Shown in pieces: positions 2,111 to 63,746 of a stretch of DNA of 64,000 bases. How positions within the stretch are numbered: position 1 is the stretch's first letter; each line of letters opens with the position of its first letter. This DNA comes from Parcubacteria group bacterium (GTDB lineage: Bacteria; Patescibacteriota; Minisyncoccia; Phycocordibacterales; DATDWN01), in the NCBI GenBank assembly GCA_039740895.1, contig JBCLGS010000001.1, positions 4,013-68,012 of the forward strand, given 5' to 3'. The notes below the pieces were generated by a model, which was not told the DNA's origin, searched no databases, and was given only the letters and a program-made list of their open reading frames with translations. Both the position numbers and the translations under genes were made by a program.

Positions 2111-3202
2111 TCATAGCAACTTCAGAATCACCTCCACTGGTATCTGTTGAGAATTTTTACAATGGAGAGTTTCTGTCGCTACAATCTGCCCAAGCTCAAA
2201 AAACTTATTTGAAGCTTGTCCCCCGCGACAATAATCAAAAAACTTGCACTCTGATCGACATCGCTCAACACCTTGGAGATATTCTCGAACATAGAGTGAT
2301 TTCTGTCCCCGTTCCAATATCGTTGTAAAATCATTCACAAAAAGGTTGCCTGCGATAAAATCGTTGTGAGCGAGTGACTTTGCCCCCAACATTTCGGGAG
2401 AAAGAAGAACAATGTCTCCATTCCATCCAATAGTTGGGAAAATATCTTTCCTGTTCGGGATCGGTTTTGTTTCGCCAATCAACGAACCCATCCATTGGAT
2501 AATATTTGTGAATTCCCTCACTCGTATTTTCGGATTTTCATACCATCTGACGAAGAGTTCTTCCCAAAATCTTGCAACTTCTTCTCCCCCGGCAGAACCA
2601 GAGTTCATACCAAGCCGTTCCTCAAGGTTAACACCAAGAGACTCACACCCAACTTGACAGAAGAAGTCATAAATCTCAGAAGCTTTAAGTAACGATTCAT
2701 TTGTGATCACTGCTATGCAGGTGAAGTTAATATCGTACATCTTCAACAAACTCACGCCACGCATGATTTTGTTAAAAGATTCATTTCCCTGCCAATCCGT
2801 ACGATTAGTATTGAGCAAATGAGGACCGTCGATGCTTACTCCAACTTCGAAATCATAATTTTTGAAAAGTCTACACCACTCTTCATCAATCAATGTCCCA
2901 TTAGTCTGTACACAATGACTAATTTTGCCAGCCTTTCGTAGGTTTTCTAGTGGTGCAATCAGTTCTATAAAATGGTTTGCACCGTATGCTAGAGGTTCGC
3001 CACCATGCCAGACTAAAGGGACATTATATGGAAGATTTAAATCACCAATACCTTTTGCCAGATGTGTGGTCAACCGATTATCCATGCGAAAATTTTTATC
3101 TCTTGATGGGAGATAACAGTATGAGCAATTGAGATTGCAGACAGTTGTCGGTTGCAACACAATTTGCCCTAAAAAGAAAAAATCGTCTTCAAACAGATTC
3201 AC
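2111..3202 (-). CDS. Radical SAM protein with SPASM/twitch-like C-terminal Cys cluster (AslB/anSME-like fold)
   Basis: CNLNCSYC (CxxxCxxC) near the N-terminus, GGEPL, Cys-rich C-terminus CRSECKFFDYC...HC. GTG start preceded by AGGAG. Confidence 0.9.
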   Translation of the reverse strand: MNLFEDDFFFLGQIVLQPTTVCNLNCSYCYLPSRDKNFRMDNRLTTHLAKGIGDLNLPYNVPLVWHGGEPLAYGANHFIELIAPLENLRKAGKISHCVQTNGTLIDEEWCRLFKNYDFEVGVSIDGPHLLNTNRTDWQGNESFNKIMRGVSLLKMYDINFTCIAVITNESLLKASEIYDFFCQVGCESLGVNLEERLGMNSGSAGGEEVARFWEELFVRWYENPKIRVREFTNIIQWMGSLIGETKPIPNRKDIFPTIGWNGDIVLLSPEMLGAKSLAHNDFIAGNLFVNDFTTILERGQKSLYVREYLQGVERCRSECKFFDYCRGGQASNKFFELGQIVATETLHCKNSQQIPVEVILKLL

Positions 3203-7256: not shown

Positions 7257-7286
7257 AAAGTGTATATTACCATATCTTTCGTTTTC

Positions 7287-7564
7287 TCAAAACATGTCTT
7301 TTTTGAGACATTGCACAGGATATTAGAAAACAACGACGAAATTAAAGAAAGACCGAAGCACTGTTTGACGAAGTCGTAATCGACGAGGTGAGAAGCGAAG
7401 CTTCGCAAGACCTTGAGTATTTTGTAATCAAAATGCAAAAGGTGTACTGCTCCTGTAAGGAGTTTGCGAGAGGTCTTCGTAATGAGGAAGATTGTTTTCT
7501 TGATATCCGAGCATAGCAAAAGCCCACCAGGGCTTTCCGTGTCTCAAAAAAGACATGTTTTGAG
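7287..7564 (+). repeat. Structured palindromic element C1 carrying the conserved core (7389-7460)
   Basis: 25-bp perfect terminal inverted repeats (ctcaaaacatgtcttttttgagaca / tgtctcaaaaaagacatgttttgag). A 72-nt core is shared with 25727-25802 and 63641-63717. Confidence 0.8.
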
Positions 7565-7568
7565 ATTT

Positions 7569-8003
7569 TTATCTTTTTGACCACTGTGGGGCTTTTCGAG
7601 CTTTCTTCAGACCGAATTTTCTTCGCTCTTTAGCTCGGGGATCTCGTTTTAGGAATCCGGCTTTTTTCAAATCTTTTCGTAGGTCAGCTCTGTATTCAAC
7701 AAGCGCCCTTGCAACTCCGTGTCGCATAGCTTCTGCTTGTGAGTGGAGTCCTCCGCCGACAAGCTTTACTGTGACTAAGAATTTCTCTTCTGCACTAAGA
7801 CTTGCAAAAGGTTGCTTTACCACTACCTGCATTTCTTTTATTGAGAAGTATACGTGAAGTTCTTTGTCATTTACTTCAAACGACATCTTTGATGCTGGAG
7901 TGATGCGTATGCGGGCAATAGCGGTCTTTCGTCGTCCAACAGTTTCAATATATCTGTCGTCACTACTCTTGTTTATTTTTTTGATTGTTTTTATTTCAGC
8001 CAT
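7569..8003 (-). CDS. rpsI: 30S ribosomal protein S9
   Basis: C-terminus GGGLHSQAEAMRHGVARAL...RDPRAKERRKFGLKKARKAPQWSKR. Confidence 0.95.
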   Translation of the reverse strand: MAEIKTIKKINKSSDDRYIETVGRRKTAIARIRITPASKMSFEVNDKELHVYFSIKEMQVVVKQPFASLSAEEKFLVTVKLVGGGLHSQAEAMRHGVARALVEYRADLRKDLKKAGFLKRDPRAKERRKFGLKKARKAPQWSKR

Positions 8004-8009
8004 TTTGTT

Positions 8010-8354
8010 TTAACTAATTTTCAAATTATTCATCATTTTCTGTCGAAGTTTATTCTTTGGAAGCATACCTGAAACAGCTGACTTGAATAGCTCGCCGTGA
8101 CCTTTCTTCTCAATAACCTGTTCCATTGTTGGCTGTCTGAGACCTCCTGGGTAACCAGAAAAGTGATTGTATGTCTTTTGAGATAGTTTACTTTCTGTAA
8201 TATCTGCTTTAGCAGTATTGACAATTTCTACAGAAACTTCAGGGATTGAATTTCTAGTGAACTCTGGCAAATTTTTTCCCATTAGCAATACTGCCACTTC
8301 TGAAGCAACTCGTCCTACCTTTTTTCCTTCTGCATCTATAATGTGTTTTGTCAT
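8010..8354 (-). CDS. rplM: 50S ribosomal protein L13
   Basis: MTKHIIDAEGKKVGRVAS is an L13 N-terminus. The ORF-track start at 8381 is a TTG inside repeat A1, so the ATG at 8354 is preferred. Confidence 0.9.
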   Translation of the reverse strand: MTKHIIDAEGKKVGRVASEVAVLLMGKNLPEFTRNSIPEVSVEIVNTAKADITESKLSQKTYNHFSGYPGGLRQPTMEQVIEKKGHGELFKSAVSGMLPKNKLRQKMMNNLKIS

Positions 8355-8371
8355 GTTTTTTACCTTATCAT

Positions 8372-8497
8372 AAACTTTCAAATTTGACCAAGGTCGCGTA
8401 TAAAATTTGAAAAAAAATTGGAGCCTACCTGAGTGCGTAGGCGACGATTCTTTTTCAGATTTTAGACGATGAAATTGGGCATAATTTGGAAGTTTTA
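8372..8497. repeat. Structured intergenic element A1
   Basis: ~125-nt imperfect palindrome with central hairpin gcctac-CTGAGTGC-gtaggc (8423-8442). Its end runs into the rplQ stop codon. Confidence 0.8.
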
Positions 8498-8845
8498 TTA
8501 TACGAATTCTATTATGGCCATAAGGCTTCCGTCACTCTTTCGCGCTGGTAATTTGGTGATGCGTGTATAACCACCTTTTCTGTCTAGATATTTTGGAGAA
8601 ATATCATTGATAATTTTTTCTGCACCAAGAGCACCAATTTTTGATATAAGAAGTCTTTTTGATATAACTGTGTTTGTTCTTCCAGAAGTAATCATTTTCT
8701 CAGCGTATGGTCGAAGCTCTCGCGCCTTTGCATCTGTAGTCTTGATTTTACCTTCTAGAACTAATGCTAAAGCAAGCGACTTCATAAGTGCGTTTCGTAC
8801 TTTCTGTTCTCTTCCAAATTTTCTTTTTGTATTATGATGTCTCAT
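8498..8845 (-). CDS. rplQ: 50S ribosomal protein L17
   Basis: MRHHNTKRKFGREQKVRNALMKSLA is an L17 N-terminus. Confidence 0.95.
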   Translation of the reverse strand: MRHHNTKRKFGREQKVRNALMKSLALALVLEGKIKTTDAKARELRPYAEKMITSGRTNTVISKRLLISKIGALGAEKIINDISPKYLDRKGGYTRITKLPARKSDGSLMAIIEFV

Positions 8846-8852
8846 TGTATTA

Positions 8853-8890
8853 TATTATTCGTAACCATTCGTGTATTGATTCGTTATTTC
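8853..8890. repeat. ACGAAT-repeat element, copy D3 (inverted relative to D1)
   Basis: tattcgtaaccattcgtgtattgattcgttatttcgta lies between rpoA stop and rplQ start. Confidence 0.7.
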
Positions 8891-8896
8891 GTATAT

Positions 8897-9859
8897 TTAT
8901 TTTAAATTTATTCCGAAACCATTTAATATTTCTTTAATCTCATTCAAACCCTTTGAACCCAAGCCATCAATCTCTAAAATATCCTTTTCTTTCTTTCTTG
9001 CAAGTCCTCCAACTGTTCGAATGTTTGCGTTTGCAAGTGCATTCTGTGTTCTGACTGAAAAATTTAATGTTTCGATTCGTGTTTTTAATGAATCTTCATC
9101 GATCTCTGAATCCGCTTTACTGACTTTTTTGTCTCCTTCCTTGTAGTCAGTAGCGAAAACTTCATCTTCTTTGAAGCCAATAATGGCCTTAAGTTGATTT
9201 ATCATTGTATCGATTGATTTCTCAAGAGCTTCTTTCGGAGAAATTGTTCCGTCTGTTTCAATAAGAATTTTTAGTCTGTTGAAATCTGTTCTTTCTCCAA
9301 CTCGCATATTCTCTACTTCATAACTAACTCGTCTTATAGGTGAAAAAATAGCGTCAAGAGTAATGAATCCAATATCAACTCGGTTTTTCTGTAATGTGTC
9401 TTTTGATATAAATCCAAGTCCTTTTTCTGCGTGGATTTCCATATCAAGCTCAGCTGTCTTATCTGTCATCGTAGCAATGACAAGCTCTGGGTTTAGGATT
9501 TCAACACCACCTGAAACTTTGATGTCTCTGGCTGTAACATCCTTAATACCCTTCACTTTTAATGTAAAAACTTGAGGTTCATCGCTAATGATTCGAATTC
9601 TAACTTTCTTAAGATTAAGCAAGATACCAACGGCATCCTCTTTAACACCAGGAATAACTGAAAACTCATGATTAATACCCTCAATTTTGATTGAGGTTAT
9701 AGCACTTCCTTCTAGAGATGACAAAATAATTCTTCGGAGAGAGTTCCCAAGGGTATGTCCATAACCAGGGTATAGTCCATCAATCTCGTAAGAGCCGACG
9801 AAATCTACTTCTGATACAATCTTTGGCTTCGATGGTAAAATAATTGTATTGTCAAACAT
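8897..9859 (-). CDS. rpoA: DNA-directed RNA polymerase subunit alpha
   Basis: N-terminal assembly domain (GHTLGNSLRRILLSS-like) and C-terminal HhH domain (LNFSVRTQNALANANIRTVGGL). Confidence 0.95.
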   Translation of the reverse strand: MFDNTIILPSKPKIVSEVDFVGSYEIDGLYPGYGHTLGNSLRRIILSSLEGSAITSIKIEGINHEFSVIPGVKEDAVGILLNLKKVRIRIISDEPQVFTLKVKGIKDVTARDIKVSGGVEILNPELVIATMTDKTAELDMEIHAEKGLGFISKDTLQKNRVDIGFITLDAIFSPIRRVSYEVENMRVGERTDFNRLKILIETDGTISPKEALEKSIDTMINQLKAIIGFKEDEVFATDYKEGDKKVSKADSEIDEDSLKTRIETLNFSVRTQNALANANIRTVGGLARKKEKDILEIDGLGSKGLNEIKEILNGFGINLK

Positions 9860-9941
9860 AAAATTTAATTAATATTAGATTATATTATTATATAAAAGCT
9901 TGTAAATTCTACACTAATTTTATAAATAAAGCAAGTTTTTT

Positions 9942-10067
9942 AAAACTTCCAAATTTAGCCAAGATCAAGTATAAAATTTGAAAAAGAATTGGAGCCTACC
10001 TGAGTGCGTAGGTGACGATTCTTTTTCAAATTTTAGACGATGAGATTGGTTATAATTTGGGAGTTTT
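9942..10067. repeat. Structured intergenic element A2
   Basis: 17-bp perfect arm aaaatttgaaaaagaat / attctttttcaaatttt and hairpin gcctac-CTGAGTGC-gtaggt. Its end overlaps the rpsD stop. Confidence 0.8.
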
Positions 10068-10674
10068 ATCTACTATAGAACTCAATTACGGTATTAAGAT
10101 CAAACATATTATCGGACTGAACATACACTGGTGCACCCGTAATCTCGGCAACCTTCTTGATTATGTCAAACTTGATCCATGAAGGTGTTGTTACACTTTT
10201 CAATCTCTCATCAACATTTGCAAATAATGGTTTTGTCTTTGAACTCTCACGGATTTCAATCTTATCACCTATTTTCACTCGAATTGAAGGTATATCTACT
10301 CGCTTTCCGTTTACAAGAATGTGGCCGTGAGAAACAATCTGTCGACTACCAAGTCTTGTATTTGAAAGACCTATTCTACATATAACATTGTCCAGTCGTG
10401 TCTCTAGAAATTCAAAAATAGTTTGTGATTTGTTTGATGATTTCTTTGAAAGAGCCTCTTTAACATAATTTGAAAATGTTTTTTCTGTAAGACCATAAAT
10501 AAATCTAGCTTTTTGCTTTTCTGTTTGCTGTAGAGAATATTCAGATTTTGGTTTAGAAAATCCTTTCTTCCTGCCTTTTCTTTCCATTCTAAGTGCGTAT
10601 TTTTGAGTTTGAGTTTTCTCAAAAATTGGTGCTCCTAGGCGTCGTGCTATTTTGTATTTTGGTCCGATTATCAT
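10066..10674 (-). CDS. rpsD: 30S ribosomal protein S4
   Basis: MIIGPKYKIARRLG N-terminus and an S4 RNA-binding domain (RLDNVICRIGL...SRQIVSHGHILVNG). Confidence 0.95.
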   Translation of the reverse strand: MIIGPKYKIARRLGAPIFEKTQTQKYALRMERKGRKKGFSKPKSEYSLQQTEKQKARFIYGLTEKTFSNYVKEALSKKSSNKSQTIFEFLETRLDNVICRIGLSNTRLGSRQIVSHGHILVNGKRVDIPSIRVKIGDKIEIRESSKTKPLFANVDERLKSVTTPSWIKFDIIKKVAEITGAPVYVQSDNMFDLNTVIEFYSR

Positions 10675-10696
10675 AATATGTTTATTAATTTATTTA

Positions 10697-10822
10697 AAAA
10701 CTTTCAAATTTGTTCAAGATCGCGTATAAAATCTGGAATTGAATTGAAGACGTACTGAGTGCTACGTCGCCAATTCAATTCTGGATTTTAGACGATGAGA
10801 TTGGACATAATTTGAATGTTTT
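10697..10822. repeat. Structured intergenic element A3
   Basis: Same architecture with different arms (ctggaattgaattg / caattcaattctgg) and hairpin gacgta-CTGAGTGC-tacgtc (10749-10768). Its end overlaps the rpsK stop. Confidence 0.8.
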
Positions 10823-11252
10823 ATACTCTTCGTGACTTCTTAGGTTTGGGTCCATTATGTGGAACTGGAGTAACATCCTTGATTCCTGTTATGCTGATTC
10901 CTTTTGAAATAAATCCTCTGATTCCTGACTCTCGTCCTGAACCTACACCTTTTACAATAACTGCAACTTCTCGCATACCCATTGTTGCTGCCTTGCCTCC
11001 GAGGATTTCACCAACCTTTGCTGCTGCAAATGGAGTACCTTTCTTGGCACCCTTGAAGCCGATTGATCCACTTGAAGATGAACCTAGGACATTACCTTTG
11101 GTGTCTGTAAGGACGATTTTGGTGTTGTTGTATGTAGACTGGATGTATAGTCGGCCAACTTCAACTTTCTTTTTTGAGACAGCTAAAACCGGAGTAGCTT
11201 TTACTTCTCCTTCAGTATCACTTCCAGTTTTTACGATTCGTTTTTTTCCCAT
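10821..11252 (-). CDS. rpsK: 30S ribosomal protein S11
   Basis: GRLYIQSTYNNTKIVLTDTKGNVL...GFKGAKKGTPFAA. Confidence 0.95.
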   Translation of the reverse strand: MGKKRIVKTGSDTEGEVKATPVLAVSKKKVEVGRLYIQSTYNNTKIVLTDTKGNVLGSSSSGSIGFKGAKKGTPFAAAKVGEILGGKAATMGMREVAVIVKGVGSGRESGIRGFISKGISITGIKDVTPVPHNGPKPKKSRRV

Positions 11253-11267
11253 TTTATTAATTTATTT

Positions 11268-11451
11268 AAAAACTTTCAAATTTGTTCAAGATCGCGTATA
11301 AAATCTGGAATTGAATTGAAGACGTACTGAGTGCTACGTCGCCAATTCAATTCTGGATTTTAGACGATGCTCCATTGTTTTCTTATGAGCAAAGCGAGTT
11401 AGAAAACAAGCAGTACCCTTGTGGCAAGATTGGACATAATTTGGAACTTTT
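11268..11451. repeat. Structured intergenic element A4 with nested 57-nt insertion (11370-11426)
   Basis: Near-identical to A3 over the first ~100 nt, then a 57-nt insert between gacgatg and agattgg. Its end overlaps the rpsM stop. Confidence 0.8.
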
Positions 11452-11830
11452 ACTTCTTATCGGCAGCTTTCTTGCCAGACGCCATCGTCTTTCTGACATT
11501 TCCTCGTCTTGTTCTGGAATTTGTTTTTGTTCTTTGTCCTCGTGATGGAAGACCTTTTGCATGTCTGGTTCCTCGGTAAGTTTTGATATCCTTTAGTTGC
11601 TTTATGTTTCTAGCAACTTCACGTTTCAAATCTCCTTCTATTTTATACTCTTCTATAATCTTTCGAATTGTATTTTCTTGGTCAACCGTTATCTCTTTTG
11701 GCTTTAAACCGTGAGGAACCTTTGCCTTATCTAATATAGTATGTGCAAGAGGTCGTCCAATACCATAGAGGACTGTTAATCCAATTTCAATTCTTTTTTC
11801 TTCCGGTAATGTGATTCCAAGTATTCTCAT
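11450..11830 (-). CDS. rpsM: 30S ribosomal protein S13
   Basis: MRILGITLPEEKRIEIGLTVLYGIG N-terminus and a basic C-terminus. Confidence 0.95.
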   Translation of the reverse strand: MRILGITLPEEKRIEIGLTVLYGIGRPLAHTILDKAKVPHGLKPKEITVDQENTIRKIIEEYKIEGDLKREVARNIKQLKDIKTYRGTRHAKGLPSRGQRTKTNSRTRRGNVRKTMASGKKAADKK

Positions 11831-11870
11831 TTTATATTTTTATATTTTTTACTTTATTTTAAATCCTGTG

Positions 11871-11988
11871 AAATTTCAAATATGGATGAAATCCGAGGCG
11901 GACGAGAATTTTGTTTGGAGCCGTACTTATCGTACGGTGACAAACAAAATTTGAAGTCCAACGATGGAGTTCGCCATATTTGAAATTT
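11871..11988. repeat. Structured intergenic element B1
   Basis: 15-bp perfect terminal inverted repeat aaatttcaaatatgg / ccatatttgaaattt and central hairpin ccgtac-ttatc-gtacgg. Related copy at 59182-59305. Confidence 0.75.
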
Positions 11989-12104
11989 TACCCTTGGCGC
12001 TGTTTGTGTCGGGCGTTGGATTTGCATGTAATATAAACATAGCCCTTTCTTCGGACTACTTGGCATTGCGCACATATTTTTTTAACTGATGATTTTACTT
12101 TCAT
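11988..12104 (-). CDS. rpmJ: 50S ribosomal protein L36 (not in ORF track)
   Basis: Hand translation: [38 protein letters not shown]. Sits between infA and rpsM as expected. Confidence 0.9.
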
Positions 12105-12141: not shown

Positions 12142-12360
12142 CTACATTCTTTTGACTATTCTTCCTTTACCTCCGTATGGGTCTATTTCTACCACGACCT
12201 TGTCTCCTATCAAAACTCTGATTCTATGCAGTCGCATTTTACCAGACAGATAACAAAGAATCTCCTCATCATCACTTTTTCTCACTCTGAAAAAAGCGTT
12301 GGGTAAGGCTTCCGTAACCGTACCTATTATACTGTTATCTTTTTTACTTTGATCGTGCAT
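12142..12360 (-). CDS. infA: Translation initiation factor IF-1
   Basis: S1-like fold sequence [14 protein letters not shown]...[18 protein letters not shown]. Confidence 0.95.
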
Positions 12361-15964: not shown

Positions 15965-16600
15965 TTACTTAAGCATTTTTAAAAGTATAGGGTAGATTCT
16001 ATCAGCAATTTTTTGGTTTCCGATATCGTTTGGATGAATAGAATCCGCCATATATCTATCATCTGCTATTAAACCATCTAAAACATTTGAAACAAAAGCT
16101 GTATGATATTTATCTCTCAATTTTTCGAATTCGGTATCAAATTTATCACTCAGTATTCCACCTCTAATTCCAAGGAGTACCACAATAGTGCCTCTTCTTT
16201 GGAGGTCGGCGATTATTTTCTCCAAATCAATAAATGTTTCTTCTTTGGGAATTTTTTTTAAATAATCATTTCCACCAAAAAGAAGTAGGACAATTTTTGG
16301 ATGATATTTATCAAATTGGTTTAATCGAGCTATCCCGTCTGCTGTAGTATTTCCAGAAATTCCTAAGTTGATTATAGGGATACCTATTTTTTTTGAAAGA
16401 AGCGACACAAAATTTTTACTTTCGCTCGACGCTCCTGTTCCTACAATTAAACTATCTCCGAAAGCAATGATATCTGTTCCACTGGAAGGATAATTGACTA
16501 TTTTATCTTCTCGAATAAATTTGAAATAAAAAATAGCAAACAAAATAAATACGATTGAAACACATATAGCGTAAATGACTTTTTTGTTTATGGAATACAT
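15965..16600 (-). CDS. SGNH/GDSL hydrolase
   Basis: Block I FGDSL, block III GGNDY, block V DSIHPN, with an N-terminal TM anchor. Confidence 0.85.
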   Translation of the reverse strand: MYSINKKVIYAICVSIVFILFAIFYFKFIREDKIVNYPSSGTDIIAFGDSLIVGTGASSESKNFVSLLSKKIGIPIINLGISGNTTADGIARLNQFDKYHPKIVLLLFGGNDYLKKIPKEETFIDLEKIIADLQRRGTIVVLLGIRGGILSDKFDTEFEKLRDKYHTAFVSNVLDGLIADDRYMADSIHPNDIGNQKIADRIYPILLKMLK

Positions 16601-16966
16601 ATGATTATGGCTGTATCAAAGAAATTAGCTCTTTTTCTGACAAAACAGGAACTCCTTCTTTTAATGCTTTTTGGTACTTACTTCCAGGCTCATTTCCTAC
16701 TACTACGAATGAAGTCTGTTTTGAAACACTTTCTGTAATTTTCCCACCAAGTTCTTTAATTTTTTTCTTGGCATCATCACGACTCATTGTTTCAAGTGTA
16801 CCAGTAATGACAAAAGTTTTGCCAGCTAATTTCTGACTTATAGTCTGAGATTTATACGGTAATATAGAGACTCCATTTTTGAAAAGTTTTTCTATAAATT
16901 TCAAATTATCTTTATTTCGGAAATATTCAAAGACACTTTTAGAAACCACTGGTCCTATATTTTCAA
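16599..16966. repeat. 368-bp direct repeat, left copy (duplicate of ligA 3' end)
   Basis: Matches 18445-18812 at an offset of 1846. Both boundaries were mapped by eye and the encoded residues are identical. Confidence 0.85.
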
Positions 16967-18361: not shown

Positions 18362-18444
18362 TTGAGTTAGTTGGATTCAAGTTTCTAATACAAATAGTAT
18401 AACCTAATTGCACATGAACAACAAATCATATTCATTTTAAATGA

Positions 18445-22282
<3,838 letters not shown>

Positions 22283-25586: not shown

Positions 25587-25623
25587 TCACAAGTTATAAC
25601 ATAAAATTAGAAGATGGTAAAAT

Positions 25624-25865
25624 AAAACAAACTAAATAATACCTTTTCTGAGACCCCGCAGACCTGAAGCAGGTTTTGTCAACGACCCGACTGAAAGGAG
25701 GGCTCATTGACAAATTCAGGTCGAGGTGAGAAGTGATAGTATCACTTCGCAAGACCTTGAGCGTCTGTAGTCAGATGCGAAAGGTGTACTGCTCCTGTAA
25801 GGAGAGAATTCAAAACCCGCTGGGGTTTTGAATGTTCTCAGAAAAGGTATTATTTAGTTTGTTTT
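25624..25865 (+). repeat. Structured palindromic element C2 carrying the conserved core (25727-25802)
   Basis: ~30-bp terminal inverted repeats (aaaacaaactaaataataccttttctgaga / tctcagaaaaggtattatttagtttgtttt). Its end overlaps the mltG stop. Confidence 0.8.
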
Positions 25866-36853: not shown

Positions 36854-36939
36854 AATCAGACTATATATTCAAGTCAAAGTATTGTATATTAATTTTACAA
36901 CTAAATAGTTAGTAGTAGCCTAAACCAGTAATGATACAG

Positions 36940-37052
36940 GTATGGCAAAGGTCCAGTTAGACATCAAAGAACCAATCATGGGGTTGTCTAACTGGCCATA
37001 TCGGGAAACCGATATGAGTGACTTCGGTCACTACCTATGTGGTGGGCTTTTT
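36940..37052 (+). ncRNA. Candidate structured RNA or leader (unclassified)
   Basis: Three hairpins: an 11-bp stem 36953-36963/36985-36995; catatcgg-GAAA-ccgatatg (36997-37016); agtgac-UUCG-gtcact (37017-37032). A GGGCUUUUU tract follows. Confidence 0.45.
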
Positions 37053-43288: not shown

Positions 43289-44794
43289 TTATTTTTTTAT
43301 ACTAATTATCTCCAATAATCTTTTCCATATTTCAACCATGGCGAAAGTGTCCAGTTCGCAGTATTTCAACAAATCATTAACAATTTTTTCTTTATCATTG
43401 CCATTTTTACCATAAAGAAATGTGTCCATCCATATACTTTGAGCGTAAGTACCACCTTGGATGTTTAGAATCTTATATGATAGCTCAGGTATCATTACAG
43501 GCAATACAGCCTTGAGAGAAGCACTTCCGTAGAAATCCTTATCTACAAACCAACCTTTAGAAAAAGGAACTTTCAGGTCTTCCATTCTATTATTCAAATC
43601 CTCCAAAAAACTGGCATAATCTGGAAACATCTCCCCCATTTCTGTATTCCTACTTTTTTCAAAAGACATATGCCAAGCAAGTACTGTTCCATGCTTTCCG
43701 ATATCCCCTTTCAATTGTTTCAAAAGTGATTCAACAGGATTGGAACTATCTGTATGTAAAAACTCCTTATGAACAACTTCTGCTTCTGGTGATTCTATCA
43801 CATGCAAAGAATACTGAAATGGAATTTGTTGATATGGTTTTGTCCCGTCATAGAGTGGAACTATTCCCTGTGCTGTCTCATAGTCAAAAAAGTACAATGG
43901 AAATTGAAGCGAATTCATAAAATCCTTTATACTTTCTTTATCAAGAAGTCTATCAGCACCTTTCACTGCTTCCGCCTGCAAAGTCTGAGTTCTGTTCAAT
44001 TCAAAATCATCTGGGATATCCTCAATTTTAGAAATACCTAAATCCTCCAACTGCCCGACTTTTTCGGGATTGATTCCTGCTAGATAGTAGACGCTTTGTG
44101 GGTCCAAAGTTTTTGGTGAAAGTTCTTCAAATATTTCCATCCATTGCTCAAAAGCCTTATCAAAATCTGTATTTACATATCGTGGCGATGGGTCTGGCAT
44201 TTTTGCTTGGCTCGCTACAACAAGTGCCTTTTCAATATTCTTTCTTGTCTTCACCATTGCTTCTCGAACTCTTTCTGTAACATCTTCAACTGACACAAGT
44301 TTTTCAGATTCAATTTCACCTGAACGCACATACTCATTATTCACAAAAGCAACTGAAATATCTTTCACCACTAATCCAGCTCCTTCAATGACAATTGTCT
44401 GAAAAGCCAAATCCTCAATATGGTCATCTTTTACGCTTGTTGTTGATTTTATTTCAACAAGATTAAAAGTATTATCTTCAGCTCGCTGTAGCACATCTAC
44501 GATACAAGTAATATTTCTTGCTTCAAACCTACCCTGAAAAATTGTACCAGCACCACTTTTTAATACAACTTTTGTTCTTTCAGGTAAAGCCAGATATTCA
44601 TCATATCCGTTAAAACTAAGCATCACTCCTCCGGGAAATAATTCCTGTGCATACTTCTCAAAATCATGTCCTGCGTCAAACCTAGCCTGAGTTGATTCAC
44701 TAACTGCCGGCAATTTTGACTTATCATGCTTTTTCAGCCACAACCACGCTGGGTGCTTCAAAAACATCATGTATTCTGATTTAGAAAGTATCAT
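43289..44794 (-). CDS. DUF2779-family protein (Cas4/RecB-like nuclease N-terminus plus RNase-H-like exonuclease C-terminus)
   Basis: N-terminal SKSEYMMFLKHPAWLWLK, IVDVLQ...LVEIKS (D..E.K) and C-terminal FFDYET...WHMSFE...CELDTFAM acidic motifs. Confidence 0.65.
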   Translation of the reverse strand: MILSKSEYMMFLKHPAWLWLKKHDKSKLPAVSESTQARFDAGHDFEKYAQELFPGGVMLSFNGYDEYLALPERTKVVLKSGAGTIFQGRFEARNITCIVDVLQRAEDNTFNLVEIKSTTSVKDDHIEDLAFQTIVIEGAGLVVKDISVAFVNNEYVRSGEIESEKLVSVEDVTERVREAMVKTRKNIEKALVVASQAKMPDPSPRYVNTDFDKAFEQWMEIFEELSPKTLDPQSVYYLAGINPEKVGQLEDLGISKIEDIPDDFELNRTQTLQAEAVKGADRLLDKESIKDFMNSLQFPLYFFDYETAQGIVPLYDGTKPYQQIPFQYSLHVIESPEAEVVHKEFLHTDSSNPVESLLKQLKGDIGKHGTVLAWHMSFEKSRNTEMGEMFPDYASFLEDLNNRMEDLKVPFSKGWFVDKDFYGSASLKAVLPVMIPELSYKILNIQGGTYAQSIWMDTFLYGKNGNDKEKIVNDLLKYCELDTFAMVEIWKRLLEIISIKK

Positions 44795-44820
44795 AATACC
44801 CCAAGTCTATACTTTTAGCC

Positions 44821-45027
44821 CTAAATGTAAAGAAGTTTTTTGAGCCACTCTAGGAAAGACTTCTTTGGTTTTGTGGGTTCTGAAATTGGTTGTGGACTAA
44901 CATCTATTGGGACATAATTGTCGGCCATTACATTTTTGTTAAGATTATCCACAAATTCTTGCGCCATTTTATCCATCATTTTTCTATGTTCTGGTGAATA
45001 TGTTACTTTTTTTAATTTTTCTTCCAT
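44821..45027 (-). CDS. Hypothetical protein (68 aa)
   Basis: ORF only. Confidence 0.35.
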   Translation of the reverse strand: MEEKLKKVTYSPEHRKMMDKMAQEFVDNLNKNVMADNYVPIDVSPQPISEPTKPKKSFLEWLKKLLYI

Positions 45028-45375
45028 TTTTTTATTTCTTAAAATAATAATTTTCTATTATCCCCTAGCTTTTAGATTTGTGGACGAGACAAACGAAAAA
45101 GCGACTAGGAGTTTTGATCCAGCTCGACTGCTGAATGAAATCTCCCAACCGCTTTTTACCCGAACAATTTCTTGTTTTAGGGTTTGGTCAGTCGCTTATA
45201 TCTTGTGGCTCCTCGCAGATTTCCCAAGTTGCCTATCCCCTGCAAAAGCAAAGGAAGATATAAACAGTCCGAATTAGCTGCACGGACTACAGTATTGATA
45301 ACTCAATGAACTACACTAGCAGTATAGCATAGTTTGTGTAAAAACACCAAAATATTTAGTAATAACTATATAATG

Positions 45376-45457
45376 ATGGCTGACCCTATTTCCCATGAAT
45401 CAAAGGTATCTGACCTCTTTATCTCTTTAATTAAAGGTGACTGACCCCTTTTCCTCC
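45376..45457. repeat. Three tandem motif-E copies (45376-45394, 45403-45425, 45433-45457)
   Basis: atggctgaccctatttccc, aaaggtatctgacctctttatct and aaaggtgactgaccccttttcctcc. The third supplies the last 9 codons and stop of the DUF262 fragment. Confidence 0.7.
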
Positions 45458-45658
45458 TGCAGTATGCGATTCTGTTAAAAATATTATTGTTCCCAATAAA
45501 TGGAATTCATTCTCTCTTAAATAATTGATATCATTAAATAGCGCGTCAAGTTGTTTAACACCCCATGCATATCTTCTTTGATAAGGAGGTATAAAAAATT
45601 GTTCATTTGTGCTAATAAACAACTGTATTATTGATTGTGTGTTGGGTGTGATTTTCAT
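45431..45658 (-). pseudogene. N-terminal fragment of a DUF262 (GmrSD/ParB-like nuclease) gene
   Basis: FFIPPYQRRYAWGVKQLDALFNDI is the DUF262 signature. The ORF ends after 75 aa, before the expected DGQQR, inside motif E. A strong SD is retained. Confidence 0.7.
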
Positions 45659-45805
45659 ATTTTTAAATGTTCCTCCTAGTGTAGCATATTAACGCTAATC
45701 TGAACCGCTCCAACATACAACAACCCAGCGGTCAGCCAATTCATCGCTTTCCCATACTTCTCCTTAGTTTTTGGATCTAGAGTAGTCAGATACATTTGAT
45801 TTACC

Positions 45806-45907
45806 TCTCCCTTTCTTCCTCATTGTGGTTTCAAGACCAAACTTTTTTATTACCTTATCAAATTTCCTTCGGTTTTAAGAATAAAGGTTCCTGACACCCT
45901 TATTCCC
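45806..45907. repeat. ~100-bp direct repeat R1 (34-nt perfect core 45835-45868)
   Basis: gaccaaacttttttattaccttatcaaatttcct is identical at 48636-48669, and flanks are similar. Ends with motif E (45883-45907). Confidence 0.75.
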
Positions 45908-45925
45908 TAATAATATAACTTGCTT

Positions 45926-48088
45926 TTACTCATTGATTGTCTTTTCTGCAAAAATCACAGCTTCGGTATTTTCTGGGTTCATAAGAACTGGCCACCAAAA
46001 TGGTGTATCGCGCCAGCCACTATCTTTGTCACCATTTTGACGTATCAGCATTAAAGCAGGAATATCTTGTGCAATATCTCGTGCGACAGAACGTACTGAT
46101 TTTCCACTTCCTCCGTCTGGGTCGTCTGAGATACGACCATCATTCTTATGTCTACTCAGATTCATGTTCTTTCGTATAACAATCCACACCTTTCCGCGCT
46201 GTTCGATATTTTTACTATTCACAGACAGGTACTCCATGCTCGACCTAAAAGTACTCCAACTCCATGCATACAAAGGATCCAGTTCTAGCGTCTTTTCAAT
46301 CAGGCTTACAACATGAAGTGCTTCCTTCAAATCAACGCTAACTGAGCCATTTTCATCAATAGTCGCAAACCATTCACTTACTATTCCGTCTACTTCAGCA
46401 ATTACAGATTCAATATGTGTTTTATATCCAGACTGAAAACCAACTGGTAACATTCTTTTGTGCGGCTGTAGTGTAGCAAGAGAAGATAGCAGTAATTTAT
46501 TTGGGGAACACGGCACCAACTTACCTGTTACATCCTTCCTAATAAAATATACTCCTTGCTCATGGCTTCCCCTCTCAAATGCCTCTCTTAGCGCTGAATC
46601 AAATTGGTGTATTCGTCTCATCACTTCGTAAATATCACGTGTTGTATAAAATCTTGTAACAGCCAGGTCCTCTCTTGATCTTGCCCCATACATACGTGAA
46701 TGTTGCAGGACGGTATCTTGCTGAAACTTCTTAGGGCTTCTTCCATAATAAAAACCTATGAGATTATTTATGGTCACCCCACGGTCAAGAATCTGACCGC
46801 CAACAAAAATATTCATTGGGTTACGTAGTTTAAGTTGGCCCTCATTATCGAGCAATTCTTCAACATCTTTATCAGAGTTTACAACAATGGTAACAATATA
46901 TTCCTTTATAAGCGCCTCTAAAGAGTTTTCTAGTACAACATCTATAGAAGGAATCACCATCCCGTCAACTTTCTGCAATGATTTTATGATATCATCATAA
47001 GCTTCTCGCAGGAGTTGACGAACAACTGGCTTGTCACTTTTTGCAGCAATGGCAAGCTGAGACACAATCGCTTTAATCACTTCAGCTTGCCAATGATGCG
47101 AAGCTCTACTTATTTCACTATGTGCTATAAGTGCATACTTCTGCACTTTTTCATTAGTAGATTCTTGTTGAAATCTTCTTATAACACTACCTACTATAAA
47201 ATTTATAACAGCAGAACGAAGTGACTTAATTTTTTCAGAAAATAACACATCGTCCAGTTTTAATCGACGAGAGTCTGATTTTTTTAATACATCACGTTCA
47301 TCCGTAGAAACCTCTTCATACACGTTATACGCTATTGAATCCTCGTCGTCACTTTCTTCAAAATAAAACTGACCTCCAACATAATTATCATGAATTGGTA
47401 CTAATGTAGTAAAAATGGGTCTCCTTGGAAGGAATTTCATGTTTGCTGTCTCTTCTGTGGTGGGCTGAAGGTATAAAGAATATGGAGTAGCGGTAACCTG
47501 CAGATAATCTACCTCTTTAACAATATTCCAGAGCTCGTCAATTTGTGACGATATTCTACCAACCTCTATCGCTTCCTCATGTTTTCTAAAACTAATGCTG
47601 GCAAAGTCAGCTTCATCGTCAATGATAAGAATCTTCTTTTCGCGGAGATCCGGATAAACACTAGCAAGCGTTTTAAGAATCCGTCTCATGTTATTGACTT
47701 CCTTCTTAACAATAATGATTAGTTTTTTATTACGCTCATACCCGGTTAGATTGTCTGGCATATGCATAATATCAAACACATCCACAAGGTCCTCTTCGAT
47801 AAATTCCTTAAAGTCTTTTCCCATTCTATGCACAGTCTGCGTCAAGAGGGCTTTCGTGCCTTTAGTAAGAATGATCGAAACATCGTACCCCTTATCAAAA
47901 GCAAGGGCCATGATTCCAATAAAGGCTCGCGTCTTCCCACTCTGAATTTTCCCGAGGAGTATTCCAGGCTTCTTTGAAGAGGTATCATTCTCGAGTAATT
48001 TTGTGACTGTTTCTTTCATGCACTCCACAAGATCTGGCGCATCTTCACGCATGCTTACAAGTCTGTTGAACATCGTTTCTTTTTCCAT
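45926..48088 (-). CDS. Z1-domain P-loop NTPase (restriction-system-associated family)
   Basis: Walker A GKIQSGKTRAF, Walker B IIDDEADFASI and a large C-terminal domain. Assignment to Z1 is from recalled family features. Confidence 0.6.
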   Translation of the reverse strand: MEKETMFNRLVSMREDAPDLVECMKETVTKLLENDTSSKKPGILLGKIQSGKTRAFIGIMALAFDKGYDVSIILTKGTKALLTQTVHRMGKDFKEFIEEDLVDVFDIMHMPDNLTGYERNKKLIIIVKKEVNNMRRILKTLASVYPDLREKKILIIDDEADFASISFRKHEEAIEVGRISSQIDELWNIVKEVDYLQVTATPYSLYLQPTTEETANMKFLPRRPIFTTLVPIHDNYVGGQFYFEESDDEDSIAYNVYEEVSTDERDVLKKSDSRRLKLDDVLFSEKIKSLRSAVINFIVGSVIRRFQQESTNEKVQKYALIAHSEISRASHHWQAEVIKAIVSQLAIAAKSDKPVVRQLLREAYDDIIKSLQKVDGMVIPSIDVVLENSLEALIKEYIVTIVVNSDKDVEELLDNEGQLKLRNPMNIFVGGQILDRGVTINNLIGFYYGRSPKKFQQDTVLQHSRMYGARSREDLAVTRFYTTRDIYEVMRRIHQFDSALREAFERGSHEQGVYFIRKDVTGKLVPCSPNKLLLSSLATLQPHKRMLPVGFQSGYKTHIESVIAEVDGIVSEWFATIDENGSVSVDLKEALHVVSLIEKTLELDPLYAWSWSTFRSSMEYLSVNSKNIEQRGKVWIVIRKNMNLSRHKNDGRISDDPDGGSGKSVRSVARDIAQDIPALMLIRQNGDKDSGWRDTPFWWPVLMNPENTEAVIFAEKTINE

Positions 48089-48091
48089 AAT

Positions 48092-48412
48092 TTATTTTAT
48101 TTGAATTATCTTCATCACTTCGTCGCCATAGCGATTGATGACCTTATATGGGAATCTTGCCTGTTACCGGCTTGGCAAATGGTCTTGAGATGGTGGAAAC
48201 GAGTGAATCAAAAATGTCAGGGTTTATATCTACCTTGGGGGCCTTCTTGAGTTTCTCGTAGGGGTTCTCAAATGACTGGGAATATGCGATTGCGGACGCT
48301 TCAATTTCTTTGCTACCTCAGTTTGAGTCAACTCTGCTTCTTCCAGGGCTTTCCGCAATCGCTCGACAAAATGGGCGTATTCCTTTGTTTGTCTTGACTT
48401 AGTCGTATACTA
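48092..48412 (-). pseudogene. Decayed XRE-family HTH gene (no start codon, at least two frame changes)
   Basis: Frame 1 reads FVERLRKALEEAELTQTEVAKKLKRPQSHI, then shifts. The final frame ends ...VINRYGDEVMKIIQIK with its stop 3 nt before the Z1 ATG. No ORF of 60 aa or more on either strand in 48089-48712. Confidence 0.45.
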
Positions 48413-48580
48413 CTATGTTCTATCTAAATTGTCAATAGCCCACTCCAGCTCATTAAAACTGTTAGCTAGCCAAGAATGAATATCTCGCAAATAGGTTACA
48501 GTATTTCCATATAAAAATGGAAATAAAGTACGAGATATCCAAACAAGTACCACAGCACAGCATCTATTCCCCCACAAAGA

Positions 48581-48602
48581 GAAAAGGTGTCAGGAACTTT
48601 TC
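48581..48602. repeat. Motif E, inverted orientation
   Basis: gaaaaggtgtcaggaacttttc; its reverse complement resembles aaaggttcctgacaccctt at 45883. Confidence 0.45.
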
Positions 48603-48605
48603 TTT

Positions 48606-48707
48606 GCCTCCCCATCTTCCCCGTTGTGTTTTCAGGACCAAACTTTTTTATTACCTTATCAAATTTCCTCTCGATTTAACAAACAATGGTGCCTGACCCA
48701 TTTTCCC
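48606..48707. repeat. ~100-bp direct repeat R2 (34-nt perfect core 48636-48669)
   Basis: See R1. Ends with motif E (aatggtgcctgacccattttccc, 48685-48707), whose stem is AATGG/CCATT versus AAAGG/CCTTT elsewhere. Confidence 0.75.
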
Positions 48708-48712
48708 ACCTT

Positions 48713-49813
48713 TTAAGTTTTTTTATTCTTTTCCCTCAATTTTATTTTTCGTTTTTCGACAAATTGTTCTTGGTGTTTGAAATATTCGCTTAAGTAAAAG
48801 TTTTGCTGCATCATATTTGATAAGTGTTTAGACCAAAAAATGTTGTCTGGTCTTGCTGGGGTTAAGATACATTTTTTATTTGTGTCAAAATAAAACTTAT
48901 CCTTATTAACCGCCTCATCGTGTGTAAAATCTAAATTACGGTTATCCTCTTTGTTGTCTATTGAAAAATCAATGATGTTGATTTGTTCAACCTGAATTGG
49001 ATCAAACAATTTACCATTTTCCAAAATTAAACAAGGGTGATTTTGACAATAATCCAGCAAATTTCCTGTATCATATTTACTATTTTTTAACTCATAATAA
49101 ATGTCCTTCAATAACTGTTTTAATTCAGTCTGTCGTTCTATGCCTATTATTTTCATATTGATACTATATAAGGCAAAAAATAACATAACTAAATCAATAT
49201 CTAAACATATTTCTTCATTAGCAAATTCACAGGCTGGATTAAATAATAATTCGTTAGTCGTATGTGATTTGATAACGTCTTGCTGACCGCCAGCAATATA
49301 AACATAAATATAACCCTCCAATTTTTCATTTCCTATATTCACAGGATTGGAAATATTATTTTTTCTTTTTATCACAGAGTTTTTCCAACTTGGAAACCTC
49401 TCATTTAATTTTTTAAAAGCACTTCTCGCTGTTTGCGAGGAAGAAACACCATCCTCATTTCTTATTGAAATCATTGAAGAAACAACCTCATCAGAACCTA
49501 ATCGACTTTTTATAACATTAAATAATGAATTCTTATCTTCATCTACGTTAAAATAATCTTCATTGATAAATTCCACAACAACACCACCAGAGAAGGTCTC
49601 TAGTTGCTCAAGTGTGAGTTTGTTTTTATTTACGGTTTTCCAAGAAATTAGAACACGATTCTTACGAGATGTTCGTTTTTGAAATAACTCATCAGGAACA
49701 TTACCTTGTGCAGTTTTCCCGCATAGATTTGTTAATTTTGTCCTAATTTTATCACCTTTATCAAAACTATTTAAAAAATTAATTGTTTTATTTCGTAATT
49801 GATTTTTTTTCAT
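48713..49813 (-). CDS. Putative type II restriction endonuclease (by position only)
   Basis: Start MKKNQLRNK lies 4 nt after the C-protein stop, and the gene is divergent from the methyltransferase. No recognised catalytic motif. Confidence 0.45.
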   Translation of the reverse strand: MKKNQLRNKTINFLNSFDKGDKIRTKLTNLCGKTAQGNVPDELFQKRTSRKNRVLISWKTVNKNKLTLEQLETFSGGVVVEFINEDYFNVDEDKNSLFNVIKSRLGSDEVVSSMISIRNEDGVSSSQTARSAFKKLNERFPSWKNSVIKRKNNISNPVNIGNEKLEGYIYVYIAGGQQDVIKSHTTNELLFNPACEFANEEICLDIDLVMLFFALYSINMKIIGIERQTELKQLLKDIYYELKNSKYDTGNLLDYCQNHPCLILENGKLFDPIQVEQINIIDFSIDNKEDNRNLDFTHDEAVNKDKFYFDTNKKCILTPARPDNIFWSKHLSNMMQQNFYLSEYFKHQEQFVEKRKIKLREKNKKT

Positions 49814-49817
49814 ATTA

Positions 49818-50048
49818 CTACTTTTGATTAAAAATTTTTCTGATATCAATATCAAGCGCATGAAAAATTTTTATGAGCGTATGGACAGATGCTTTGCGTC
49901 TATTTGTTTCAATATCACTTATAGATTTTGCCGCTAGGTTGACGGTGCGCGCGAGTTGCTCTTGTGTTATTTTTTTTGCTCGACGAAAATCGCCAATTTT
50001 TGATTGGATTTCATTCTGCACCTTCAAAAAGTCTATATTGGGGAGCAT
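49818..50048 (-). CDS. XRE-family HTH controller (C) protein
   Basis: ITQEQLARTVNLAAKSISDIETNRRKASVHTLIKI is a typical HTH_3, and the gene sits immediately upstream of the putative REase. Confidence 0.75.
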   Translation of the reverse strand: MLPNIDFLKVQNEIQSKIGDFRRAKKITQEQLARTVNLAAKSISDIETNRRKASVHTLIKIFHALDIDIRKIFNQK

Positions 50049-50125
50049 GTTTAAATTTTAACTTATATTATGATACAATATAACCGGCTAACTGCCGTAG
50101 TAAAAAATGATTATTAAGTAAAAAT

Positions 50126-59166: not shown

Positions 59167-59181
59167 CTTATTTTGTTTTTT

Positions 59182-59305
59182 AAAAACTTTTATAATTTGA
59201 ATGAAATCCGAGACGGACAAAAAATTTGTGCGAAACCGTACTCCTGTACGGTGACAAACAAATTTTGAAGTCCAACGATGGAGTTCGTCAAATTTGAAAG
59301 TTTTT
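59182..59305. repeat. Structured intergenic element B2
   Basis: Shares atgaaatccgag, hairpin ccgtac-tcct-gtacgg, gtgacaaacaaa and gaagtccaacgatggagttcg with B1. Confidence 0.75.
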
Positions 59306-59306
59306 A

Positions 59307-63391: not shown

Positions 63392-63583
63392 CAGAAAAAT
63401 CCGCATTACAGCGGATATTTTTGGTGGTGTTTGTTTGAAAAAGTCAGAACCCATTTCGAGCAGAACCCCTAGCTTCGCACGCTCCGCGTGCGTGGTGGCT
63501 TGAAACTCAATCGTACGCTCCGATTGCGCCTCGGGCGCGCTCGCGGACTCGCGCGGGCAAGGGAACACTTGTGCAGAGCCAAA

Positions 63584-63746
63584 ACCCAAAAATTTTCCTT
63601 CCTTTCTGATTTAATTCGGCGGGGGGTGTGGGGGGTGAGGTGCGACAACTGGAAGCACCGCAAGATCTTGAGCATTTTGTAATCAAAATGTGAAAGGTGT
63701 ACAGTTTCTGTAAGAAAACGACAAAAAATGGAAAGGAAATTTTTGG
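63584..63746 (+). repeat. Structured element C3 carrying the conserved core (63641-63717)
   Basis: Outer stem ccaaaaattttccttcc / ggaaaggaaatttttgg. The core shares GCAAGAYCUUGAG, the attttgtaatcaaaat hairpin and AAAGGUGUAC with C1 and C2. Confidence 0.7.

Follow-up and report, generated by a model that had tools for sequence, protein, structure and literature searches.

An undescribed family of small mobile hairpin elements in Patescibacteria

A minus-strand cluster of ribosomal-protein genes in contig JBCLGS010000001.1 of a Parcubacteria group bacterium is interrupted by long hairpins of 120–130 nt, which contain no open reading frame (ORF) and have no coding capacity. The whole stretch of 64,000 nucleotides analyzed here (64 kb) is referred to as the window. 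The hairpins were found to be insertions and not parts of the operon, and they belong to an undescribed small mobile hairpin family of Patescibacteria with Paceibacteria-type hosts. The comparison of the copies showed that the hairpin is kept through compensatory change around a conserved asymmetric core. The elements look like selfish DNA resembling miniature inverted-repeat transposable elements (MITEs) or REPINs, not like an operon regulator. They are probably non-autonomous, with a trans-acting enzyme that recognizes the core of the folded single strand and integration at TA in such a way that the stop codon is rebuilt.

Hairpin copies in the ribosomal-protein cluster and their absence in relatives

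Six copies, A1 to A4 of family A and B1 and B2 of family B, were located in the window, five of them within 3.6 kb. The junctions infA-rpmJ, rpoA-rplQ and rplM-rpsI of the cluster are empty. Folding energies are given below for the plus strand versus the opposite strand, and bit scores refer to the family-A covariance model.

8371–8497, plus strand: copy A1 (class-I termini), between the rplQ stop and the rplM start; −52.7 vs. −39.6 kcal/mol; 123.7 bits
9941–10068, plus strand: copy A2, between the rpsD stop (10066–10068, within the element end) and a promoter-like site of rpoA; −63.1 vs. −44.4 kcal/mol; 115.1 bits
10696–10823, plus strand: copy A3, between the rpsK stop (10821–10823) and the rpsD start; −56.7 vs. 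−44.3 kcal/mol; 111.5 bits
10716–10732 and 10785–10802, plus strand: 5′ core and 3′ core of A3
11268–11452, plus strand: copy A4, between the rpsM stop (11450–11452) and the rpsK start; 67.7 bits, lowered by the insert
11370–11426, plus strand: nested hairpin insert of 57 nt in A4, an alignment gap that splits the 3′ core at GACGATG^AGATTGG; loop GAGCAAAGCGAG
11870–11990, plus strand: copy B1, between the rpmJ stop (11988–11990) and the rpsM start; −61.0 vs. −46.4 kcal/mol; 46.5 bits, E 1.4e-9
59181–59306, plus strand: copy B2, abutting the stop (59307–59309) of a DsbD_2/HMA membrane-protein gene (Pfam); −47.9 vs. −40.7 kcal/mol; 48.1 bits

Each of the copies A1 to A4 forms one long hairpin (z −9.9 to −12.2 against dinucleotide shuffles), and the 20-mer ATTTTAGACGATGAGATTGG occurs three times, compared to 0.01 expected occurrences. 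A3 and A4 are 100% identical across 117 nt, 16 nt of the left flank included, which indicates recent activity. B1 and B2 have the termini and the apical GGAG...TGAC in common with family A but contain a different core. Both were recovered by the family-A covariance model at E ~1e-9, and no further copies were detected over the 64 kb.

An earlier note on this DNA, made from the letters alone, had described A1 to A4, and all four copies were recovered at its sites. B1 and B2 had been overlooked, and A4, a real copy, turned out to be A3 plus the 57-nt nested hairpin inside the 3′ conserved block. The outer arms and internal blocks common to the four copies, the swap of the apical stem from gcctac/gtaggc to gacgta/tacgtc and the wholly different, yet complementary inner arms were all confirmed in the window. 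The loop CTGAGTGC, described as invariant, is indeed common to A1–A4, but the apical loop varies across the family.

The same junctions were compared in six related loci (L001–L004, L122 and L123) representing five distinct sequences, with identical RpoA and gene spacings in L001 and L002. The RpoA identity to the window is 79% for L004 and 84–85% for the other five. The gene order is identical in all six relatives. The junction lengths in these loci range between 8 and 20 nt for rpsM-rpsK, 25 and 60 nt for rpsK-rpsD, 73 and 110 nt for rpsD-rpoA, 5 and 18 nt for rpoA-rplQ and 4 and 13 nt for rplQ-rplM. The elements present in the window are thus absent from the matching junctions of all six loci (4–110 nt). 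The more distant locus L009 (S13 75% identical) carries family-A copies after rpmJ and after rpsM, with the same polarity as in the window. At the rpmJ-rpsM junction of L003, a 25-nt palindrome consisting of the two termini only looks like a collapsed copy. Since junctions are filled in the window and L009, empty in the relatives and occupied by a remnant in L003, they have been repeatedly gained and lost. This comparison of orthologous operons, which the earlier note had proposed, shows presence and absence between species. For empty sites within the same species, a 24-mer of rpsK had no match in metagenome contigs, and exact-protein look-ups for L36, S13 and RpoA returned no record.

The genes of the cluster, identified by Pfam in the order infA, rpmJ, rpsM, rpsK, rpsD, rpoA, rplQ, rplM, rpsI, and the promoter-like site next to A2 are located as follows.

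7569–8003, minus strand: rpsI
8010–8354, minus strand: rplM
8498–8845, minus strand: rplQ
8897–9859, minus strand: rpoA
9906–9936, minus strand: promoter-like TTGCTT-17-TAGAAT upstream of rpoA, outside A2, which is located upstream of it
10066–10674, minus strand: rpsD
10821–11252, minus strand: rpsK
11450–11830, minus strand: rpsM
11988–12104, minus strand: rpmJ
12142–12360, minus strand: infA

The sequence TTGCTT-17-TAGAAT is kept in the rpsD-rpoA spacer of L001 and L003, which lack A2, and its −10-like part is retained in the same spacer of L004 (GTGTAGAAT). This suggests a putative internal rpoA promoter in this lineage.

Other small repeats were observed at junctions of the relatives. A different repeat of ~35 nt (ACGTATGCACGAGGGTTACCTCRGGCGCAATT) lies a few nucleotides past the rpmJ and rpsK stops in L004 (8354–8407 and 9222–9281), in one orientation, and another element bounded by inverted repeats, ATCCCGTTAGAGGT...ACCTCTAACGGGAT, is found between infA and rpmJ in L001. 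It may be a general feature of these lineages to carry small structured inserts past stop codons.

Family architecture and covariation of the hairpin

For the identification of further members, species-representative genomes were scanned with the pattern TATAAAAT-N35-65-ATTTTAGACGATG. The scan yielded at least 117 stretches, and ~90 true members were found among the matches listed; the rest are chance matches in unrelated taxa without the flanking core. The hosts comprise at least ~30 metagenome-assembled genomes (MAGs), all Patescibacteria, with several copies per genome. They are mostly labelled Zambryskibacteria, Paceibacterota, Parcubacteria or Minisyncoccia, the labels being those of the records; the automatic label 'Saccharibacteria' on some hosts is considered untrustworthy. 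A covariance model, the approach suggested by the earlier note, revealed ~25 further diverged copies in the same loci, many of them family-B-like, resulting in a total of at least ~120 copies in ~30 MAGs.

In viral contigs, no match to the covariance model was obtained, and the 18 pattern matches were all due to chance or coding sequence, so that carriage of the elements by phages was rejected. The family had not been recognized in the earlier note, and no Rfam family corresponds to it: the best scores for positions 8300–12100 were far under the gathering thresholds, in scans by gathering threshold as well as by E-value. Literature searches on MITE, REP or attC sequences in Patescibacteria, the Candidate Phyla Radiation (CPR) or Saccharibacteria yielded no description of the family.

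The elements are built in a constant order. An outer stem of 15–17 bp is followed inward by a short variable stem, the conserved core AAGGTCGCGTATAAAAT / ATTTTAGACGATGAGATT and a hypervariable inner stem of ~18 bp. The apex consists of GGAG, an apical stem of 5–6 bp with a variable loop, and TGAC. The outer stem belongs to at least two unrelated sequence classes, AAACTTTCAGATTTG/CAAATCTGGAAGTTT (class I, ends TAAAAC...GTTTTA) and GCTCAGAGGATTTTT/AAAAAGACCTGAGC (class II, ends GCTCAGAGG...CCTGAGC). Class-I termini are common to families A and B, whereas copies with the unrelated class-II termini have the same core. The invariance of TATAAAAT and ATTTTAGACGATG is a product of the search pattern, but AAGGTCGCG and AGATT, which lie outside the pattern, are also conserved in at least 90% of the copies. 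The internal core is more conserved than the termini. One subfamily, defined by the apex CCTACCTGAGTGCGTAGG and the inner stem TTGAAAAAGAAT, was found at different sites in at least seven genomes.

Covariation was analyzed in 96 model-aligned copies from ~30 genomes, using 35 modelled pairs and 500 shuffles. Standard pairs were observed in 94.8% of all cells, compared to 77.2% in shuffled alignments and 36–44% with the partners slid. The number of pairs changed on both sides was 25 of 35 (18.9 after shuffling) and the number of double-change cells was 500 (130 after shuffling). None of the 500 shuffles reached any observed covariation value; the copies are phylogenetically non-independent, and the shuffle statistics thus overstate the significance. 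In line with the earlier note, which inferred selection on the structure, these compensatory changes show that the structure is conserved and not the sequence alone. Its argument that covariation is not expected of a MITE alone does not hold, as the covariation is seen here between subfamilies of a mobile element.

The conserved core is not a perfect helix. It contains a G·U wobble in 92 of the 96 copies, a bulged A, an A·G mismatch and a 2×2 purine loop, and a second G·U is found at the apex in 77 of 96. A hammerhead-like reading of GUC...CGAUGAG was rejected, given a single hairpin between the motifs and no GAAA segment.

The fold is strand-specific. The hairpin is more stable in the core orientation in 89 of 90 distinct copies, with a mean of −52.9 vs. 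−39.7 kcal/mol. The G·T pairs described for the plus strand of the window proved to be real, and the plus strand of A1–A3 folds better than the mRNA strand by 12–19 kcal/mol. Across the family, 253 G·T and 24 A·C combinations were counted at modelled pairs (84 vs. 24 without the two conserved wobbles). In the window, the better-folding strand is antisense to the genes, and the sense strand is the G-rich one according to its skew. Deamination bias would put G·T on the G-rich sense strand and would thus cause the opposite asymmetry. Since the expected bias acts on the other strand, mutational bias was rejected as the cause of the G·T excess, which points to selection on the folded strand.

In two genomes, the family-A 3′ core is interrupted at an identical position (GACGATG^AG) by a second small hairpin, composed of a stem with the loop GAGCRAAGCGA and ...GTACYCTTGTGG. 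One is the insert at 11370–11426 of the window, the other lies in L078 (~2716–2854, minus strand). Relatives of it also occur in L016, L051, L100, L024 and L097, and there are free-standing occurrences. This hairpin may be an element that targets the family-A core.

Stop-codon abutment and candidate modes of movement

The position of the elements is tied to the stop codon of a gene on the opposite strand. With gene calls made by simple ORF heuristics, an antisense ORF with no fewer than 60 open codons (30 if the frame leaves the locus) ending not more than 90 nt from the 3′ block was found for 75 of 94 copies, and in ~66 of these the stop lies exactly at the element end. Overall, one particular end is located 0–5 nt from the stop of an antisense gene in ~70–80% of the copies, and the mirror-image test on the opposite element end gave no peak. 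Greedy gene calls identified the neighbour at the stop-side end as antisense in 67 of 88 callable copies. A gap of 0±5 nt was measured for 27 of the 30 tandem cases and for 17 of the 20 convergent ones; no abutment was seen in the nine sense-tandem cases. Family-B-like copies follow the rule in 17 of 27 cases.

The abutted stop codons are TAA (38), TAG (35) and TGA (2), which differs from the background in the same loci (TAA 59%, TAG 24%, TGA 16%). As TAA and TAG are abutted and TGA nearly never, the junction appears to need TA, and the element gives the third base. The stop codons at A2–A4 consist of TA and the first base of the element. The earlier note, which had the last bases of the element supply the TAA in all four copies, was corrected in this respect: at A1, rplQ keeps its own TAA (8498–8500), and the element adds a second one in frame. 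The C-termini of the genes were found to be native and intact, e.g., L36 (...KQRQG*) and S7 (...AFAHFAW*), and also S13, S11, S4 and L17 in comparison with relatives.

TA-linked junctions would also be expected for an ordinary TA-targeting MITE of the DDE type (IS630/Tc1-mariner), for which the transposase reads duplex termini and the hairpin is idle, the covariation arising from palindrome-correcting template switching or from different palindromic founders. TA...TA flanks, the small size, the lack of an ORF and the multicopy nature fit such an element, and so do class-I termini in families A and B despite their different cores, as is the case for shared terminal inverted repeats. On the other hand, if duplex DNA alone mattered, neither a conserved asymmetric core nor an excess of G·T over A·C would be expected. 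Template-switch correction would erase mismatches that are kept in 92–96 of 96 copies, and class-II copies combine unrelated termini with the same core. Furthermore, no insertion sequence (IS) with these termini was found in the window and related loci, and random insertion at TA does not yield an abutment of 0–5 nt at convergent ends that hold other TAs. We therefore judge a DDE-type MITE to be distinctly unlikely.

The abutted genes are diverse. They comprise ~70 unrelated genes, among them those for L6, S7, S3, S18, an M23 peptidase, a penicillin-binding protein (PBP), FtsW and a XerD-like protein. Ribosomal-protein genes make up ~1/4 of them, ~3x their share of the genome. Copies at the same orthologous stop in different species (after L6, S7 and S18) are 89–93% identical, although the abutted gene, where its amino acids agree, shows only 39–61% identity at third codon positions, with synonymous sites near saturation. 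Whole elements may be under purifying selection, or they may have spread and turned over recently. A function of the elements as promoter or terminator was rejected, since only class-I copies contain the promoter-like TTCAAA-18-TAAAAT, and the base of the stem is either AT-rich or without a U-run.

An alternative explanation is a domesticated, host-beneficial structured RNA that host selection retains. It would act as a plus-strand transcript, antisense to the 3′ end of the abutted gene, or as the weaker hairpin of the mRNA sense, and its role would be in mRNA processing, antisense control, translational coupling or the protection of 3′ ends. RNA helices that bind proteins typically have conserved G·U wobbles, tandem purine mismatches and a bulged A, as is the case here. 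Synonymous sites are much less conserved than orthologous copies, there is an enrichment at highly expressed ribosomal-protein operons, and the fixed stop-codon position would put the base of the stem beside the terminating ribosome. This explanation is nevertheless considered unlikely. The same junctions are free of elements in the closest relatives, it is the strand antisense to the operon that folds better, and the abutted genes are functionally unrelated. No family-wide plus-strand promoter or terminator was seen, class-II copies being devoid of a −35-like hexamer, and identical recent copies together with TA-linked junctions indicate mobility. The roles in processing, stability or attenuation of the operon mRNA considered by the earlier note were not supported as the selected function, for similar reasons: the favoured fold is antisense to the mRNA, the closest relatives do without the elements, and at some convergent ends among the ~70 abutted genes there is no downstream gene. 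Of its three candidate roles, selfish elements acting on single-stranded DNA fit best.

At convergent ends, the other gene often has its own terminator of GC hairpin and T-run and a spacer holding other TAs, and the element is still located at one stop. Selection alone is thus an unlikely cause of the abutment, since 17 of 20 convergent ends abut one stop despite free TAs. The polarity may originate from integration coupled to the termination of transcription or translation, from a loss of the stronger hairpin that depends on its orientation, or from counter-selection of strongly folding RNA within operons. There is a slim chance that the placement as such results from a mechanism reading gene ends, either by such coupled integration or by adding an attC-like single-strand site with fixed polarity to the stops of ordinary genes.

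The second of these possibilities was evaluated on its own. In this explanation, the element is an attC-like site whose folded 'bottom' strand is used by a tyrosine recombinase and which is added to the 3′ ends of ordinary genes, so that gene and site would form a unit in the manner of integron cassettes. The size range, the imperfect palindrome with unpaired bases in the stem and a structure conserved beyond most of the sequence are similar to attC. The same applies to the favoured strand antisense to the gene, the fixed polarity with a start at or in the stop codon, the AAC/GTT triplets in the class-I ends and the array gene-site-gene-site in a single orientation in the window. However, the R-box consensus RYYYAAC/GTTRRRY is not matched, class-II ends have no AAC/GTT at the homologous position, and a strongly conserved internal core is not a trait of attC. 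The neighbours are essential, syntenic ribosomal-protein genes instead of cassettes. No integron integrase was found among the 20 window proteins scanned, and no integron integrase or attI was seen. A tblastn search with an approximate XerD sequence identified one ordinary XerD-like gene, which is just one of 72 abutted genes, and gave no match in the window. An attC-like origin is therefore very improbable. If true, it would provide a natural route from plain genes to units of 'gene + folded site' and bear on the unsolved origin of integron-type gene cassettes.

The placement of the elements with MITEs, REPINs and enterobacterial repetitive intergenic consensus (ERIC) sequences is based on presence and absence at orthologous sites, identical recent copies, many unrelated genes, the lack of coding sequence, terminal inverted repeats and TA-linked junctions. 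Three features are unusual for such elements: a core more conserved than the termini, a fold of one strand and one end at a stop codon of the opposite strand. For a selfish element handled as a folded single strand, the following steps are proposed. The element would be copied or moved as a folded single strand, most likely of DNA, possibly through an RNA intermediate, and its core would be recognized by a structure-specific enzyme acting in trans. Integration would take place at TA, the TA of the stop codon and the terminal purine of the element rebuilding the stop. Such a rebuilt stop would make the insertion nearly cost-free to the host, even inside a ribosomal-protein operon. The alpha operon is highly expressed, and its five copies would then hitch-hike at sites that are permissive or hot instead of regulating it. 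Effects on the mRNA would be side effects; the mRNA-sense hairpins at the five junctions were calculated by folding to have −40 to −46 kcal/mol and are maybe nuclease substrates.

Several observations weigh against this proposal. TA...TA flanks are present in many copies, many of them class-I, and missing in many others, and TA, being self-complementary, is indistinguishable from the last base pairs of the stem. A classical DDE-type MITE would show the opposite of what is seen here, where the termini vary between classes around a conserved internal core. The polarity relative to the gene, even at convergent ends, has no mechanism in a selfish-element model, and the 89–93% identity of orthologous copies could reflect purifying selection at the host level instead of selfish turnover. 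Finally, the window and ~0.9 Mb of related loci yielded neither a mobilizing enzyme nor an autonomous relative.

Several searches were performed for such an enzyme. Using tblastn with approximate Y1 sequences, the 0.9 Mb of element-bearing loci gave one spurious match in an rsmE-like gene, and no REP-associated tyrosine transposase (RAYT) was detected next to any copy by these approximate queries. Unpaired or widely spaced core halves represented only truncated or diverged copies, and a candidate in L108, obtained from widely spaced termini, was not an IS. Pfam analysis of 10 proteins from the low-GC part of the window revealed a defence-like island and no transposase.

Little is known of the mobile elements of Patescibacteria, whose genomes are tiny and tightly packed. 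The family described here is abundant, with about one copy per 10 kb in the window, is common to several species and enters even a core ribosomal-protein operon. The abutment to stops despite free TAs and the fold opposite to the gene suggest a target choice that senses gene ends or a strong orientation-dependent survival, either of which would be informative on single-strand DNA or RNA transactions in these organisms. With the covariance model, the elements could be flagged during the annotation of MAGs, whose assemblies they break and whose intergenic regions they inflate, and insertion polymorphisms could serve as strain markers.

Other repeats in the window and comparison with known systems

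Three long intergenic regions of the window (7257–7568, 25587–25863 and 63393–63800) have a strongly folding block of ~65 nt in common, GGTGAGAAG..CTTCGCAAGACCTTGAG-hairpin-GCAAAAGGTGTACTGCTCCTGTAAGGAG. Long inverted repeats bound two of the three regions, and the block has no Rfam match. In L042 and L031, the 3′ part of this block motif is fused directly to a family-A 5′ core. Another motif, ...GGTCTTGTCAACGACCCGAGCAYAGCGAGGGCTCTTGACAAGTC... between GC-rich pairing segments, occurs in L069, L087, L100, L102 and L105 and at ~25650–25730 of the window.

The Rfam scan of the window identified only a tRNA and a full-length LOOT RNA motif at 36917–37032 on the plus strand (73.7 bits, gathering score 46.4). 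A direct repeat of 300 nt (16594–16893 and 18440–18739, 99% identical, spacing 1846 nt) overlaps the ends of minus-strand ORFs. The defence-like island at 43289–52198, a region of lower GC, encodes a DUF2779 protein, a Z1-domain/ResIII helicase-like protein and an N6_N4 DNA methylase, and contains a 75-nt repeat at 45807–45881 and 48608–48682.

The elements were compared with four known groups of small repeats and with attC sites. REPINs are repetitive extragenic palindromic (REP) doublets forming hairpins that are mobilized by RAYT/TnpA-REP, e.g., in Pseudomonas fluorescens SBW25 (PMC3116915; PMC8266576). The elements described here are similar in being non-coding long hairpins of ~100 nt that are multicopy, extragenic and long-persisting, with subfamilies occurring together in one genome and a proposed movement via folded single-stranded DNA and an enzyme in trans. 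They differ from REPINs in their host phylum and in forming one continuous hairpin with one asymmetric core instead of an inverted pair of short REP palindromes with a 5′ GTAG-type motif. A RAYT was not found beside the copies with the approximate Y1 queries, and neither the fixed-polarity abutment to stop codons nor the TA junction is a REPIN trait.

ERIC sequences, also called intergenic repeat units (IRU), of Enterobacteriaceae and Vibrio are imperfect palindromes of ~127 bp in transcribed intergenic regions and are conserved across genera. The length is nearly equal to that of the elements described here, and both consist of one long imperfect hairpin, are located at operon junctions and 3′ ends, are common to species with saturated synonymous sites and have no known mobilizing enzyme. 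No sequence is shared, as judged from the lack of an Rfam or other match. ERICs are known to occur in both orientations relative to transcription; in the present family, nearly all copies have one polarity, and the strand opposite to the mRNA folds better.

The Correia elements (NEMIS/CREE) of Neisseria are TA-duplicating MITEs, and their co-transcription gives nuclease-sensitive RNA hairpins. They resemble the elements of this study with respect to TA at both flanks, seen here in many but not all copies, a size of ~100–150 nt, terminal inverted repeats and insertion near genes. The present family differs by termini that change from class to class around a conserved internal core, by a strand-specific fold and by a position linked to stop codons. 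MITEs in general are comparable in size (<300 bp) and in being non-coding and multicopy (six copies in 64 kb), with terminal inverted repeats and presence or absence at orthologous sites; the difference is that an autonomous element with the same termini was not found in the window or related loci.

attC sites are recognized as a folded single strand antisense to the upstream ORF, and their structure outweighs the sequence. The start at or in the stop codon, the fixed polarity and the similar size range are shared with the elements described here. The R-box consensus is not matched, as class I agrees only in AAC/GTT, no integrase/attI platform was found and the neighbours are not cassettes. 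In contrast to attC, the internal sequence of the Patescibacteria elements is conserved.

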